DNA from: a virus
Lineage: Duplodnaviria; Heunggongvirae; Uroviricota; Caudoviricetes
Virus record (IMG/VR): IMGVR_UViG_2690316311_000019
DNA length: 64,000 nucleotides
Strand: one strand, 5' to 3'
Made by a program: the position numbers and the translations under genes. Below the pieces are notes generated by a model that made no database searches, was not told the origin of the DNA, and was given only the letters and a program-made list of their open reading frames with translations. Positions 14,257-38,112 of this stretch are shown here, one piece after another (within the stretch, counting starts at the first letter, position 1; each line of letters opens with the position of its first letter).

Positions 14257-14439
14257 GTATTTTTAAGTCGCGAATGCTATCTTTTCGCATCATATTGACC
14301 TTTTAATCGTTCAGGCTTATAGTTCCGCCGTCGTAGCAAATTCTGCGACCAGGTTTGACAGCCTGAATGATTGTGCGGACAACCGCAGATTTCCGATATT
14401 GCGGTATTTTTGTGTCCGTTAAACCGCGTTACGCCCAAA

Positions 14440-14520
14440 TTATGGTGGGGCGTGATGGGGAGGCTTCGGCCTGCTGGTTTCACAATCGCCAGTCTGTCAA
14501 CCCTGTCACGTCCTGCCACC
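14440..14520 (+). ncRNA. Candidate c4-like antisense regulatory RNA
   Basis: Hairpin-rich non-coding stretch (GGAGGC-TTCG-GCCTG stem with UUCG loop) containing CTGTCAA at 14494-14500, complementary to TTGACAG copies at 14355-14361 and 14524-14530 that flank it; boundaries approximate. Confidence 0.3.
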
Positions 14521-14570
14521 TGTTTGACAGCGGGTAGCAGGTTGTTAAACCTGATTGTGAGGCCGTAACT

Positions 14571-17968: not shown

Positions 17969-18091
17969 TACAATCGTTGCGGGTGCTTGAGGCTATCTGC
18001 TTCAGGCATTACCCGAAAAGCAGATAGAAGAAAGCCCCAGATAACATTACGCGTCCTGCAAGACGCTTAACATTAATCTGAGGCCACATCT

Positions 18092-18298
18092 ATGCTTAGC
18101 ATACGTAGATTAGCCTCTTACCGACCAAAAGGTCAAGGAGAAGCAGGCTATGAAGCAGCAAAAAGCGATGTTAATCGCTCTGATCGTCATCTGTTTAACC
18201 GTCATTGTGACGGCACTGGTAACGAGGAAAGACCTCTGCGAGGTACGAATCCGAACCGGCCAGACGGAGGTCACTGTCTTCACAGCCTACGAATCTGA
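18092..18298 (+). CDS. mok-like overlapping reading frame of the hok-type locus
   Basis: 68-aa ORF in a different frame overlapping almost the whole hok-like gene, as in hok/mok loci. Confidence 0.35.
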   Translation: MLSIRRLASYRPKGQGEAGYEAAKSDVNRSDRHLFNRHCDGTGNEERPLRGTNPNRPDGGHCLHSLRI

Positions 18299-32134: not shown

Positions 32135-35100
32135 AAGAGCTGTGCTATGGATCTGTTTGCAGTGGAATTGAAGCCGCGAGTATTGCCTGGGAACCGTTGG
32201 GTATGCGTCCGGCGTGGTTTGCTGAAATCGAGCCTTTTCCATCGGCCGTTCTTGCGCTCCGCTGGCCCCATGTTGCCAACCTTGGCGACATGAAAAAACT
32301 TGCCAAAAAAGTCTTGGCTGGGGAAATCGAATCCCCTGACGTGCTCGTCGGGGGAACACCATGTTTTACCGCGGGGCATATGGTTCTTTGTAAAAATGGC
32401 TATAAACCAATAGAAAATGTTTGCCCTGGTGATTACGTAGTCAGTCATCTCGGGCGGTTACAACAAGTAAAAAGAGTTGGTTCAAAAATAGCTAATACGG
32501 GGTTACTTAATGCCGTTGGGCAGCCTTTAGGTATAAGAACAACCAATGACCATCCCTTCCTGGCTGTTCGGTGGAAAGCCCAAAACACCCGGAAAAATGG
32601 CACATATTTTAAGAGAGAGTTGTTGTCTGAACCGGAATGGCGAGCAGCATGTGATATGCCGGGATATCAATGGTGCGCTCTAACTAATTTCAATATTGCA
32701 TTTCCAGATATTTGTTCTCGGTTCTTGTCTGAAGAACAGGCTATGTATCTTGCGGGCGCTTATGTTGGCGATGGATATATTAGGAGATGGAGAGGTAAAT
32801 CTAAGAAGGCGGTTGTTTTTGGCATAAATTGCCAGAAATTGAGAAAGTTTCATTGCCGCATACCAGAAAACATATTTTCCGTGGCAAGCGAAATCCGAGG
32901 GAGCATCAAAGTAACCTTGAATGATACGTGTTATGCCAATTGGCTTAATGAACATTTTGGCGAGTTAAGCCATGCTAAGCGTATCCCTGCATGGGTGATG
33001 TCGCATCCATTGCGTCATGTGTTTTTACAAGGCTATCTTGATACTGATGGGACACCAAGTGGTAAAGCGGGATTTAGAATTAATAGTGTTAGTTCTGCGC
33101 TTGCTTGGGGCGTTGCGGGGTTGTCACAGACTTGTGGTTATGTTTCTTCGGTCAGCTTTATTGAAGTTGAGCCCAAAAAAGTGATCGAGGATCGCGTGGT
33201 AAATCAACGGAATTATTATCAGGTAACAATCTGCCCGCAGAAATTGTCACGTAAATCAAGATTGGCTCATGGAATGCTTTTACGAACAGTCAAAGAGTTT
33301 AAATCGGTAGGCCTAGATACTGTATACAACATAGAAGTCGAAGGTGATCATTCCTATATCCTCAATGGTGCGGTGGTCCATAACTGTCAGGCATTCAGTA
33401 TCGCGGGATTACGTGGTGGGCTTGATGATGAGCGTGGCGCGCTAACTTTAAAGTATGTGGAGTTTGCAAATGCAATTGACGACAAACGGGCTGAGTCATT
33501 TCTCAAACCAGCCGTTATCGTCTGGGAAAATGTCCCAGGAGTCTTGTCATCGGCAGATAACGCCTTCGGATGTTTCCTTGCCGGATTGGCTGGAGAAGAT
33601 GTGCCATTTGAACCAGGTGATCGACCTGAATCAGGAAAAAGCAACGCGTTCTGGCGGTGGGATGGCAAAACCGGTTGCCATGTTCCAAAGTGGCCGCAGT
33701 GTGGTTGTATTTATGGACCGCAGCGAAAAGTGGCCTGGAGAATCCTTGATGCCCAATACTTCGGAGTGGCACAACGACGCCGACGCGTGTTTGTTGTCGC
33801 AAGTGCTCGAACAGATCTCGATCCCGCAACGGTACTTTTTGAGTTCGAAGGCGTGCGCCGGAATATTGCGCCGAGCAGAGGCGAGGGGAAGGAAACTACC
33901 AGATATACTTCAAACATCGCTATCAGAACTTGCGATGATACAAACATAATTGCCATGGCACATGGGCAAGGAGGGGCTGAGATAAAAACCGATAATTCGG
34001 CACCAACTTTGACATGTAACCATGAAGCACCAATTGTATTGCTCGGCGACGGTAGAATGCGCCGTCTTACCCCTGTCGAATGTGAAAGGCTGCAAGGTTT
34101 TCCTGATTGGCATACGTTGATCCCTACGGAAAAGCGTAAAAAAGTTAATTCAGATGAACTGGCATATCTGCACAATCACTATCCAGATTTAAGCGAAGAA
34201 GAGGCCGCAATGCTTGCAGCTGACGGACCGCGTTACAAAGCGATCGGCAATAGTATGGCAATACCAGTAATGCGCTGGATTGGCGATCGGATTACTAAGG
34301 CCGTATGTCGGCAGAAAGAAGGAAGTGAAACAAAAGAGCGAAAAGTTAAACCAGCGGCAGAATTCGAACGGTCCATATTCAAATGGGCTGGTGGAAAATT
34401 TGGTGTTCTGGAACAAATCTTTCGCTATTTGCCAGAAGGGAAGCGCCTGATTGAACCTTTCGTTGGTGGCGGAGCTGTCTTCATGAATGCCGGATACCAG
34501 GAAAATCTGCTAAATGATGTGAATGCTGACCTGATTAACTTTTACAAGACTCTGCAACGCGAGGCGCATTCACTTATCACTCTGGCACATCGTTTCTTCC
34601 AGGACTACAACACACAGGAAGGATACCTGGCAGTACGGAATGCGTTTAACAAACAAGTCTATGATGATTTACATCGCGCAGCGGCGTTTTTGTTCCTGAA
34701 CCGACATTGTTTTAACGGATTGACGCGTTACAACCAGGCCGGTGAGTTCAATGTCGGTTATGGGAAGTATAAAACTCCGTATTTCCCATTACAGGAGATG
34801 GAAGCCTTCCTCGGTGCGGAAGGGCGGTCTGAGTTTGTATGCGGTGATTTTGCAGCGGTGATTGAAGCTGCCGGAGAAGGAGATGTCATCTTTTGCGATC
34901 CGCCGTATGAACCGCTTCCAAATACAGAGGGATTCACGAACTATTCCGGTCATGACTTTAAGTTTGAAGAGCAAAAACGCCTGGTGTCTCTGTTGACGGA
35001 TGCTCATCGTCGAGGTGCAAAGGTTCTCATTACTAACAGTGGCGCGCCAAACATCAGAGAGCTTTATCATGACAGTGGCTTCAGAGTGGAACCTCTTTTT

Positions 35101-35172
35101 GCCAGACGTTCTGTGTCTTGTAAGGGGGACACTCGAGGTGTAGCTCATGACGTTTTGGGTATATTGCTCTAA
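32131..35172 (+). CDS. dmt: Bifunctional DNA methyltransferase (C5-cytosine domain interrupted by an intein, then Dam-like N6-adenine domain)
   Basis: GTG start coupled to the rdgC stop; C5-MTase motifs (GGTP / CQAFS split by insert, [26 protein letters not shown]) then Dam motifs (KWAGGK, DPPY). Confidence 0.85.
32362..33384 (+). other. Intein with LAGLIDADG homing endonuclease domain inserted in C5-MTase motif IV
   Basis: 341-aa insert: starts CFTAGHMV, block B TTNDHPFL, two LAGLIDADG-like motifs ([19 protein letters not shown]), terminal [21 protein letters not shown] followed by +1 Cys; removal restores GGTPCQAFS. Confidence 0.85.
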
Positions 35173-35189
35173 TAAATTTATTAGTGTAA
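35163..35189 (+). promoter_or_regulatory. Overlapping pair of C1-type operator-like sites ahead of the tRNA/helicase operon
   Basis: Perfect ATTGCTCTAATAAATTT at 35163-35179 overlapping an inverted AAATTTATTAGTGTAAT; overlaps the dmt stop codon. Confidence 0.6.
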
Positions 35190-35353
35190 TATCACCTCAA
35201 TGAATCGTGATTTATAGAGCGATTTAGCTGTTAGCCGCGACAGGCGCGGCGGTAAGCATGGCTGGGCCTAGTCCTCCCAGACAAACCACCGAGTTGCCAG
35301 GTTGACCATGCGCCTAAGTGGCAACGCCGAAGTGCGTTACGAGCGTCCAGTTT

Positions 35354-35380
35354 GCCCATCTTCGGGTGGGCGTTTTTTTC
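35354..35380 (+). terminator. Rho-independent terminator/attenuator in the leader
   Basis: GCCCATC-TTCG-GGTGGGC hairpin followed by GTTTTTTTC. Confidence 0.5.
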
Positions 35381-35844
35381 AGGGTTTTCGTCATGGTTAG
35401 CGACTTTGCGGCGGTTTAGAAACTGACCATTAAAGTAAATGCAAACGATGATCTGATGATGGTAGCGGCCTAAGAAGCCAGATGCCATGGGGTATGAGTC
35501 GTCCCCCGTCAAAAAATCGACCGCAGAGTGTCCCCGTCTGTGTATTAGGGAACGGGGAGGCACAACAGGTAAGGGCGCTGGTGTGATTAACCAGATGAAC
35601 GAGAAGGGGCCATCTGTTGGTCAGCGTCCTTTCCTGTTGCGTTTTCTTTTCAGCGTAACAGCGGTGCTTAACAGCACTTTGGGTACAGTTCCACGAATTT
35701 ACGGGTATATCCCGTCATGCTGAAGGCGCTAATCACGCTGGAAGCCAGGGTTATGCATCCCCTGTTACCGAATTGCAGCCAGGGCGCGGTGCGCCGAAAA
35801 GCATACGGAGGTGGAAGCCCTCGCCGGAGACGTACCCGGCAAGT

Positions 35845-35919
35845 GATGGTGTAGCTCAGCGGTAGAGCAGTTGGCTGTTAACCAACTGGTCGGTAGTTCG
35901 AATCCACCCACCATCGCCA
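35845..35919 (+). tRNA. tRNA-Asn (GTT)
   Basis: Acceptor GATGGTG/CACCATC, D-arm GCTC/GAGC, anticodon loop CTGTTAA, T-loop TTCGAAT, encoded CCA. Confidence 0.8.
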
Positions 35920-35924
35920 CTTTA

Positions 35925-36011
35925 GGGGAGTTAGTCCGTAGGGGTAGCGGGGTAGACTGTAAATCTACTGTCATTGCGACTCGGGTGGTTCGACTCCATC
36001 ACTCCCCACCA
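35925..36011 (+). tRNA. tRNA-like element with Tyr (GTA) anticodon loop and long variable arm; non-canonical D-arm region
   Basis: Acceptor GGGGAGT/ACTCCCC, anticodon arm GTAGA-CTGTAAA-TCTAC, T-arm GGTGG-TTCGACT-CCATC, CCA; four nt instead of two between acceptor and D-stem. Confidence 0.35.
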
Positions 36012-36015
36012 CATT

Positions 36016-36091
36016 GCCGATTTAGCTCAGTTGGTAGAGCAGTCGCTTTGTAAGCGAATGGTCAGCGGTTCGATCCCGTTAATCGGCACCA
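36016..36091 (+). tRNA. tRNA-Thr (TGT)
   Basis: Acceptor GCCGATT/AATCGGC, D-arm GCTC/GAGC, anticodon loop TTTGTAA, T-loop TTCGATC, CCA. Confidence 0.8.
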
Positions 36092-36096
36092 ACATA

Positions 36097-36170
36097 ACAG
36101 GTAAGAGCATTCTCCCTTATGGGGCCTGGCTTAAATGCATCGAGTGCTCTTACCGTTGTGATGAAGTGCA
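36097..36170 (+). repeat. Structured repeat element A (long hairpin plus conserved 3' tail)
   Basis: GGTAAGAGCA...TGCTCTTACC stem followed by GTTGTGATGAAGTGC. Confidence 0.5.
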
Positions 36171-36460
36171 GATCTTAGAAGCAACCAGAAGATAAGCATC
36201 TGGCTTCACAACATAAACCGCAGGAACGACCAATAAACGGTAGTCCGTATGGAGAACACCCCGTTGAGGAAGAGGCCTGGCCGGAACCGTAACCGGCGAC
36301 TGGTAATGTGTGTAAATGGAGCGAAATATGTGGGCGTTTAACGGGATACGGGTTGTAACAGCGATTATTAACGGCGAACTTAAGTATTCACGTTTCGAGA
36401 CAAATGAACGTGATGGGAAATGTATTGGTGTGCGGTTAGTAAGAGAATACGCATAACAAC

Positions 36461-36737: not shown

Positions 36738-36825
36738 GTAACAGGTAAGAGCATTCTCCTGTAACGGGTTCATATCCCAATCTACAGGTCCACCAAGAAT
36801 GCTCTTTCCGTTGCGGTGAATGCGG
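36738..36825 (+). repeat. Structured repeat element C
   Basis: Outer stem GGTAAGAGCATTCT/AGAATGCTCTTTCC (as element A), inner hairpin CCTGTA-ACGGGTTCATATCCCAATC-TACAGG (as element B), followed by GTTGCGGTGAATGC. Confidence 0.5.
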
Positions 36826-36964
36826 CTAAGCGCACGCGGGGAAATGGTTATATCTGTCCATTATTTCTCCTTGTTTCCACGTCCACGGTGGATAACCAGC
36901 CAAAGGACACCGGGAGGAACCCGGCACCGCAGCTTTTTTATTCGTTAAATAATGGAGTGAGAGG

Positions 36965-38036: not shown

Positions 38037-38112
38037 GGCCCTTTAGCTCAGTGGTTAGAGCTGGCGACTCATAATCGCACGGTCACCGGTTCAAGTCCGG
38101 TAGGGGCCACCA
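38037..38112 (+). tRNA. tRNA with CAT anticodon, most similar to the lysidine-type tRNA-Ile2 (ileX-like)
   Basis: Resembles the remembered E. coli ileX sequence (GGCCC..TTAGCTCAGTGGTTAGAGC..GGCGACTCATAATCGC...GGTTCAAGTCC...GGGGCCACCA); acceptor GGCCCTT/AGGGGCC. Confidence 0.75.

Follow-up and report, generated by a model that had tools for sequence, protein, structure and literature searches.

The tRNA genes of phages are usually interpreted in terms of codon compensation, which is the prevailing view of their role (PMC13096335). Two phage tRNA-Tyr have been studied in the context of anti-phage defence. The tRNA-Tyr of T6 was detected by northern blot and by tRNA-fragment sequencing, and its overexpression, or its amplification driven by SegB, allows T6 to escape Septu, a system that cuts both the host and the T6 tRNA-Tyr at C48, in the variable arm (PMC13096335). 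The same study describes the T6 molecule as relatively unstable and offers "decoy or supplement" as alternatives for its mode of action (PMC13096335). With the tRNA-Tyr of SP15 and T5, which has a very strong promoter, phages are rescued from retron-Eco7 PtuAB; the rescue is abolished by mutation of the anticodon or of a stem, and the host tRNA-Tyr also rescues when it is put under the phage promoter (PMC11555353). This last result indicates that dosage matters, and the loss of rescue upon a change of anticodon points to a need for decoding. The closest described locus is the tRNA cluster in the ban operon of P1 (trnA for Asn, trnT for Thr and trnI for Ile2), with a C1 operator and promoter upstream, and trnI and ban downstream. 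In P1, P7 and most of their relatives the Asn and Thr genes lie 2 nt apart, and there is no Tyr gene.

We analysed a stretch of 64,000 nucleotides of phage DNA, hereafter the window, which contains the same locus with the same upstream and downstream elements. There, unlike in P1, a tRNA-Tyr gene stands between tRNA-Asn and tRNA-Thr. The elements of the locus are the following.

35163..35190, no single strand: bivalent C1 repressor operator overlapping the ban promoter (-35 TTGCTC, -10 TAATAT), about 655 bp upstream of the tRNA cluster
35350..35379, + strand: terminator-like hairpin followed by a T run (consensus scan), at the position of the P1 "dicF-like region"
35845..35919, + strand: tRNA-Asn(GUU), first gene of the cassette (ARAGORN; Rfam 69.9 bits)
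35920..35924, + strand: spacer CTTTA, 5 nt, between Asn and Tyr (read from the sequence)
35925..36011, + strand: tRNA-Tyr(GUA), 87 nt, class II (ARAGORN, Rfam, fold, family alignment and existing annotation)
36012..36015, + strand: spacer CATT, 4 nt, between Tyr and Thr (read from the sequence)
36016..36091, + strand: tRNA-Thr(UGU), third gene of the cassette (ARAGORN; Rfam 67.8 bits)
38037..38112, + strand: CAU-anticodon tRNA downstream in the same transcription unit, identical to P1 trnI (tRNA-Ile2) and labelled "Met" in the phage record
38387..39757, + strand: ORF of a ban-type DnaB-like replicative helicase, the distal gene of the operon (ORF list)

The Tyr gene is called by ARAGORN as tRNA-Tyr(gta) exactly at 35925-36011 (+) and is one of four tRNAs that this program finds in the window, all on the + strand (Asn, Tyr, Thr and the CAU tRNA). 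An Infernal search of the whole window gives an RF00005 match at 35925-36008, with 41.9 bits (E = 1.7e-5) for a gathering score of 29 bits. The two tRNA finders thus agree at their default thresholds, and the extra tRNA with a Tyr anticodon that the first-pass annotation had proposed between tRNA-Asn and tRNA-Thr, with such a check in mind, lies precisely between the two ARAGORN genes. Over 601 bases around the site the window matches Escherichia phage vB_EcoM-Ro157c2YLVW (Punavirus, MH160767/NC_050153) at 100% identity, and the record of that phage (MH160767) annotates the same segment as tRNA-Tyr(gta). Identical and near-identical copies in RefSeq plasmids are also labelled tRNA-Tyr. The minimum-free-energy fold of the segment is a cloverleaf, whose stability is no better than chance relative to shuffled sequences (z = -0.67), so that the support for the gene rests on the covariance model and on comparative data. 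The first-pass annotation hesitated between three readings: a working type II tRNA-Tyr whose D region is unusual, a decaying pseudo-tRNA and a tRNA-like processing element. ARAGORN, Rfam, the RefSeq labels and the comparative data all favour the first of these, and judging from its sequence the segment 35925-36011 is very probably a functional accessory class II tRNA-Tyr(GUA) gene. Being a close relative of the T6 gene, and annotated in public records, it is an ordinary and already known gene rather than a new discovery.

The gene is composed of the following parts.

35925-35931, + strand: 5' strand of the acceptor stem
35932..35935, + strand: acceptor-to-D-stem connector UAGU, with the conserved U8 and A9 and two extra variable unpaired bases (Infernal, family comparison)
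35936..35950, + strand: D arm, with stem CCGU (35936-35939) / GCGG (35947-35950) and the 7-nt loop AGGGGUA (35940-35946)
35952-35956 / 35964-35968, + strand: anticodon stem
35959-35961, + strand: anticodon GTA
35969-35983, + strand: variable region
35984-36000, + strand: T arm
36001-36007, + strand: 3' strand of the acceptor stem
36008, + strand: discriminator A
36009-36011, + strand: encoded CCA

Outside the D region we found what the first-pass annotation had described. The acceptor stem, read from the sequence, has 7 bp (GGGGAGU/ACUCCCC), the anticodon arm is a perfect 5-bp stem GUAGA/UCUAC closing the loop CUGUAAA, the long variable region (15 nt) has its own 3-bp stem (GUC/GAC), and the T arm, GGUGG-UUCGACU-CCAUC, which had been called plausible, contains a single G.U pair. 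The discriminator is A and CCA is encoded. The stems, U33, the GUA anticodon, the T loop of UUCGA type, G18 and G19 and the long variable arm are all those of bacterial class II tRNA-Tyr (RF00005). The identity set of TyrRS consists of A73, G1-C72, G34, U35 and a long variable arm, and the Tyr sequence contains every one of these elements, as would a tRNA that the enzyme charges. In the family described below, the anticodon loop, A73, G1-C72 and CCA are strictly conserved, and the stem of the variable arm is paired in 92.9% of the cells of the alignment, with 3/3 of its pairs changed on both sides.

The D region departs from the canonical connector of two bases (positions 8 and 9), since here the connector has four. 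In the Infernal alignment the Tyr segment has 2 extra nt after position 9, and the minimum-free-energy fold and covariation agree with this placement. The four nucleotides that had been counted at first pass between acceptor and D stem are therefore confirmed, and they are conserved in the family. The D loop is canonical (A14, G18 and G19, A21), it has A at both ends, and one base (G) separates the D stem from the anticodon stem. We grouped tRNAs with this anatomy into a lineage found in T6, T5-like, rV5-like and Felix-O1-like phages; it is a grouping of the present analysis and not a named family. It is defined by U8 and A9 followed by 2-3 unpaired bases, a 4-bp D stem of the form N-N-G-U / G-C-N-N, a D loop of 7-8 nt starting and ending in A, and one base before the anticodon stem. 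The Tyr gene of the window has all of these features, and matching anatomies are found in T6 (UA-UC-CCGU...GCGG), Tequatrovirus JB75, the rV5-like LL12, the T5-like IrisVonRoten and the Felix-O1-like heid. An IMG/VR scan anchored on the anticodon and T loops only returned 86 distinct Tyr tRNAs, 18 of which have the extended-connector motif, and further members came from scans with one D-stem pair left free. The lineage amounts to 48 + 31 = 79 distinct metagenomic sequences, plus the named phages.

When 48 sequences are aligned on the structure with a 4-nt connector, 98.3% of stem cells are paired and 19 of the 24 pairs have changed on both sides. Pairing in the D stem reaches 100% in this register, as compared with 34% in the 2-nt register, and none of the 48 sequences shows a D-stem mismatch, without any filter on D-stem pairing. 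Its second pair is C-G in 20 sequences, G-C in 17, U-A in 9 and A-U in 2. Its first pair, in the 31 further sequences, is A-U, G-C, G.U or U.G, always with 4/4 pairs formed. Scans for variants at the third and fourth pairs gave only matches that lack a tRNA-Tyr context; hence, the G-C at the third pair and the U.G at the fourth appear invariant. The U and A of the connector are also invariant across the 48 + 31 sequences, whereas the next two bases vary (GU, UC, UU, UA, GA, AC, AU and AA were seen) and have no obvious partner by inspection. Every copy forms the whole D stem, with covariation at the first two pairs. The D arm, described as weak at first pass, is therefore not weak but displaced: it has a 4-bp stem, CCGU/GCGG, and a canonical 7-nt loop. 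Two alternative drawings were rejected. The one made by ARAGORN, with a 2-nt connector and only the pairs G10-C and U11-G, corresponds to the poorly paired register, in which the bases vary freely across the family. A D stem of 5 bp, joining the fourth base of the connector with the base before the anticodon stem, would give a U-G pair in the window and fails, on inspection of the 48-sequence alignment, in JB75, T6 and the other clades.

The extended-connector motif, searched with a narrow pattern, occurs in only 38 of 185,579 bacterial species genomes (one genome per species). Most of these matches belong to tRNA arrays of phage-like type, with a few solitary chromosomal genes besides (e.g. 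in Tahibacter and Blautia). Its rarity in these genomes and its association with phage-like arrays make the lineage look phage-borne. We considered a cellular origin and rejected it, as this pattern gave no sign, in the 185,579 species genomes, of the motif being the normal tRNA-Tyr of any lineage. A rough survey of connectors in 1,326 phage tRNAs, made noisy by the start offsets of ARAGORN, found that 86% are best fitted by 2 nt, and that about half of the apparent 4-nt cases are Tyr, which must be taken as an indication only. A rough survey also gave the canonical 2-nt connector as the best fit for only 36 of 83 phage Tyr tRNAs. Other phage tRNA-Tyr lineages in IMG/VR have odd D arms of their own (e.g. 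those labelled L043 and L037 in our set), including one with two clear pairs (GGAA...CCCC), and another phage tRNA-Tyr of 93 nt has a 5-bp D stem (GAUGC/GCAUC). A homologue in Enterococcus phage A155 (L129, ~301-385) has the same connector and D stem, but its D loop (AAGUAGUA) is without the GG doublet; its T loop is UGCGACU, it has no encoded CCA and it is missed by ARAGORN. Degeneration, or adaptation to a Gram-positive host, may account for these features.

The extended connector lowers the scores that the Rfam covariance model gives to the lineage. The host tyrU scores 53.4 bits, the window gene 41.9, JB75 30.2 and a T5-type copy 29.4, and the T6 tRNA-Tyr falls below the Rfam threshold, i.e. 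the model penalises a lineage that includes an experimentally validated tRNA. A limited full-text search of the literature retrieved no description of an extended connector with a displaced, covarying D stem. This suggests that the conserved connector is a modest curiosity, possibly undescribed, and a search of such limited extent is no proof of novelty. Be that as it may, a conserved connector of 4-5 bases with a covarying D stem makes a neat exception, provided by nature, to the standard cloverleaf. One might speculate that the two extra bases (three in the T5 type) and the displaced D helix form a phage-specific architecture of class II tRNA-Tyr, selectively kept across phages of Proteobacteria, Bacteroidota and Firmicutes, that would alter the way nucleases or quality control view the tRNA core while preserving charging by TyrRS. 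The connector would then be a structural signature of immune evasion and not a neutral quirk. We regard this idea as doubtful. The T6 copy is still cleaved by Septu, and the connector thus gives no protection against that nuclease.

One must also ask if the gene is a decaying pseudo-tRNA, as had been envisaged at first pass, or a hitch-hiking remnant of a recombined cassette that is out of translational use. Its non-canonical connector, an Rfam score 11.5 bits under that of the host tyrU (41.9 vs 53.4), its absence from most P1-like plasmids and the existence in IMG/VR of two near-copies with single stem mismatches (L073 and L102) could be taken in this sense. Yet, the same "defect" is kept in T-even, T5-like, rV5-like and Felix-O1-like phages and in the 79 distinct sequences, compensatory changes are found in every stem, D stem included, and homologues of like anatomy are expressed and active. 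The window gene is identical to the T6 tRNA-Tyr at 78 of 87 positions. Of the nine differences, five affect stems (four the anticodon stem and one the T stem) and leave the pairing intact; the other four concern unpaired positions, namely two bases of the connector, one of the D loop and position 26. The differences from JB75 and LL12 keep pairing as well. P1-like plasmids with different flanking tRNAs (Arg(UCU)-Tyr-Thr vs Asn-Tyr-Thr, and different Thr alleles) also have 100% identical Tyr sequences, and the canonical loop residues and CCA of the gene are all intact. Hence, we found neither the disrupted stems, nor the lost invariant residues, nor the drift between copies that characterise pseudogenes. 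Given the substitutions that preserve pairing, in a family with 98.3% of stem cells paired, the identical copies and the RefSeq labels, we consider a decaying pseudogene excluded, and the wider reading as a remnant deserves hardly any credence. The mismatches of the two near-copies are an A3.C in the acceptor stem (L073) and a G.A in the anticodon stem (L102); these single-base variants may be sequencing errors or rare decayed copies.

How might the gene be expressed? At 35163-35179 (+) the C1 operator sequence ATTGCTCTAATAAATTT is matched perfectly, and at 35174-35190 (-) a second, inverted operator departs from it by 2 mismatches. Identity to P1 is 98.4% over 35001-35919, and the corresponding P1 sites are annotated Obanab and P1ban/P2ban and control the unit that contains trnA, trnT, trnI and ban. 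The distal helicase ORF is labelled primase/helicase in MH160767, ban in P1 and dnaB in pO111_2. This C1-controlled promoter, ~655 bp upstream, is the only one found for the tRNA cluster, and the hairpin at 35350-35379 lies between the two. It counts against simple transcription from the promoter to the tRNAs, and a strong terminator-like element in this position makes one wonder how transcription reaches the tRNAs. The spacers between the tRNA genes resemble those of homologous cassettes in N4-like and T-even phages, which are similarly short and A/T-rich.

The surroundings of the gene call for a few additional observations. The window carries other hallmarks of P1, namely the antisense RNA C4, accompanied by its targets a1/b1, and the antitoxin RNA sok (14317-14523 and 17981-18155, both above Rfam thresholds), and ten C1-operator matches. 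A match to the sRNA family STnc100 at 36812-36931 is sub-threshold (38 bits vs a gathering score of 47). The tRNA-Asn of the window has an A.C mismatch in the T stem (GGUAG/CCACC), shared by all the plasmids that are 100% identical to the window, where sister copies in another P1-like plasmid and in phage-plasmids of ~110 kb have GGUGG/CCACC; the gene still scores 69.9 bits.

Putting these elements together, we propose that tRNA-Asn, tRNA-Tyr and tRNA-Thr would be co-transcribed from the C1-repressed ban promoter upon induction or infection, as suggested by their position and by the annotation of P1. The precursor, with its short spacers, would be processed by RNase P and 3' trimming as tRNAs generally are, the CCA being pre-encoded. 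The host TyrRS would charge the tRNA-Tyr, which would read UAU and UAC. By analogy with T6 and T5/SP15, the benefit would be an extra supply of tRNA-Tyr in lytic growth, above all under depletion by PtuAB (Septu, retron-Eco7). We think it likely that this account holds as a whole, i.e. that the locus encodes a functional extended-connector tRNA-Tyr operating through these steps. That relief from depletion is the main selective benefit of the gene is a more delicate point, for which analogy with the studied relatives suggests about an even chance. The window gene has both the isoacceptor identity (GUA) and the cleavage-site sequence of the validated member, its variable arm being that of T6. 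As this arm is the cleavable one, any protection would operate through dosage or as a decoy, and not through resistance.

Codon compensation being the prevailing view (PMC13096335), one may propose instead that the gene encodes a working tRNA-Tyr whose sole role is translational supply for late proteins, with no link to defence. The neighbouring phage tRNAs fit this proposal, as codons ACA (15.9 per 1000), AUA (11.4) and those for Asn (46.2) are raised in the 45 long ORFs of the window. The Tyr codons of the same ORFs stand at 29.8 per 1000, against about 28 per 1000 in E. coli. In contrast to ACA, AUA and the codons for Asn, they are thus essentially at the host level, which argues against simple codon matching and leaves the codon-usage explanation unsupported for this gene. 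Besides, a single GUA tRNA decodes both Tyr codons, hence there is no rare-codon gap to fill. Furthermore, the only phenotypes shown experimentally in the family are anti-defence ones (PMC13096335, PMC11555353). A purely translational role seems to us rather unlikely, if somewhat less so than the immune-evasion interpretation of the connector.

A different possibility is that the RNA is shaped as a tRNA and has a non-translational job, either as a mark for the processing of the ban transcript or as an uncharged decoy for nucleases. The polycistronic array with spacers of 4-5 nt is compatible with the former. The latter echoes the "decoy or supplement" alternatives of the T6 study, where the tRNA-Tyr is cut by Septu at the same site of a variable arm (PMC13096335) to which that of the window is identical. 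Yet, changing the anticodon of the SP15/T5 homologue abolished rescue (PMC11555353), and a mere processing signal has no need for a strictly conserved anticodon loop, A73, G1-C72 and CCA. Nothing in our results specifically favours the tRNA-like processing element of the first-pass annotation, and we hold non-translational roles in general to be quite improbable. If, as we favour, the gene provides a functional tRNA-Tyr that counteracts depletion, P1-like phage-plasmids, common residents of both pathogenic and commensal E. coli, would be tied to the arms race around tRNA-Tyr that involves Septu and the PtuAB of retron-Eco7. One would then expect P1-like variants that bear the cassette to plate better where the host has such defences.

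The cassette has a mosaic history. Relative to P1, the region from ~35845 to 36458 is a replacement block in which the Asn gene is diverged, the Tyr gene inserted, and the Thr gene and its flank 82% identical; it ends with an insertion of 161 nt, at 36298-36458, just downstream of tRNA-Thr. We found the Tyr gene in 269 of 5,426 complete E. coli genomes, always on plasmids, the identity being at least 99% in 80 records and 95-99% in 192. The P1-type upstream leader is present in 475-562 genomes, and from the counts of gene and leader about 1 in 6 P1-like E. coli plasmids carries the Tyr gene. The picture is similar in PLSDB. As some five sixths of these plasmids lack it, the gene is dispensable. 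A full-text search returned nothing relevant, either on tRNA-Tyr in P1-like elements or under the name of phage vB_EcoM-Ro157c2YLVW.

The same Asn-Tyr-Thr order and spacers are found in E. coli phage-plasmids of ~110 kb (e.g. p20170902CC-1 and "phage CMS-2020a"), in which the Tyr gene is 1-3 bases away from that of the window and the Asn gene nearly identical. Unlike the window, these elements have a different replicon backbone, DNA ligase and glutaredoxin (GrxA) genes as neighbours, and an extra tRNA-Ser(UGA). The homology between P1-like elements and this family (NZ_AP025215.1, CMS-2020a) is limited to the tRNA block, which suggests an exchange of cassettes between families of phage-plasmids, and the Asn-Tyr-Thr block may accordingly be seen as a mobile cassette common to two such families. 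N4-like phages have Asn-Ser-Thr in the same arrangement. In the P1-like plasmids CP125036 and NZ_CP027309 (L131 and L132, 746-822) a tRNA-Arg(UCU) replaces the tRNA-Asn; the two genes are identical in the acceptor stem, T arm and 3' end, and differ only in the D loop and anticodon arm. At the level of sequence this resembles an anticodon-arm swap (tRNA remoulding) within the cassette, so that the mobile Asn-Tyr-Thr block stands beside cases of swapping. The extra 87-nt tRNA-Ser(UGA) lies downstream of Thr in P7 (L130, 1246-1332), where it is unannotated, in some P1-like plasmids (L131, L132) and in the ~110-kb phage-plasmids (L134; L320, 4032-4118), and is absent from the window; ARAGORN draws it with an acceptor-to-D connector of 1 nt.

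Among the characterised tRNAs, that of T6 (MH550421, 66473-66559, adjoining segB) is closely related to the gene of the window. It has the same length of 87 nt, the UA+NN connector, the CCGU/GCGG D stem with a 7-nt D loop, and an identical variable arm (UGUCAUUGCGACUCG) and T loop. It differs in its setting, a lytic T-even tRNA array, and in its amplification through the SegB endonuclease. The tRNA-Tyr of T5/SP15 type, here represented by Epseptimavirus saus176N (L319, 388-478), resembles that of the window in its extended connector, in a D stem of 4 bp that ends in G-C and U.G, in the CUGUAAA loop and the T loop UUCGACU, and in A73 with CCA. Its connector is of 5 nt (UAGUA), its D stem is UCGU/GCGA, with U-A as first pair, and its variable arm is longer and different from that of the window, and reportedly resists cleavage (PMC13096335). 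The variable arm of saus176N is an exact match to the 26-nt northern probe used for the SP15 tRNA-Tyr (PMC11555353). The tRNA-Tyr of E. coli (tyrU, tyrT, tyrV) is also of class II, with an anticodon loop identical to that of the window, G1-C72 and A73, and with a variable arm that starts with GUCA, the PtuAB cut site, as does that of the window. It departs from the latter by its 2-nt connector, by a D stem CCC/GGG in which the fourth pair is G.A, and by a loop of 9 nt. Yet, the distance from position 8 to position 26 is 20 nt both in tyrU and in the window, where the D helix is moved two bases toward the 3' side and its loop is two bases shorter.
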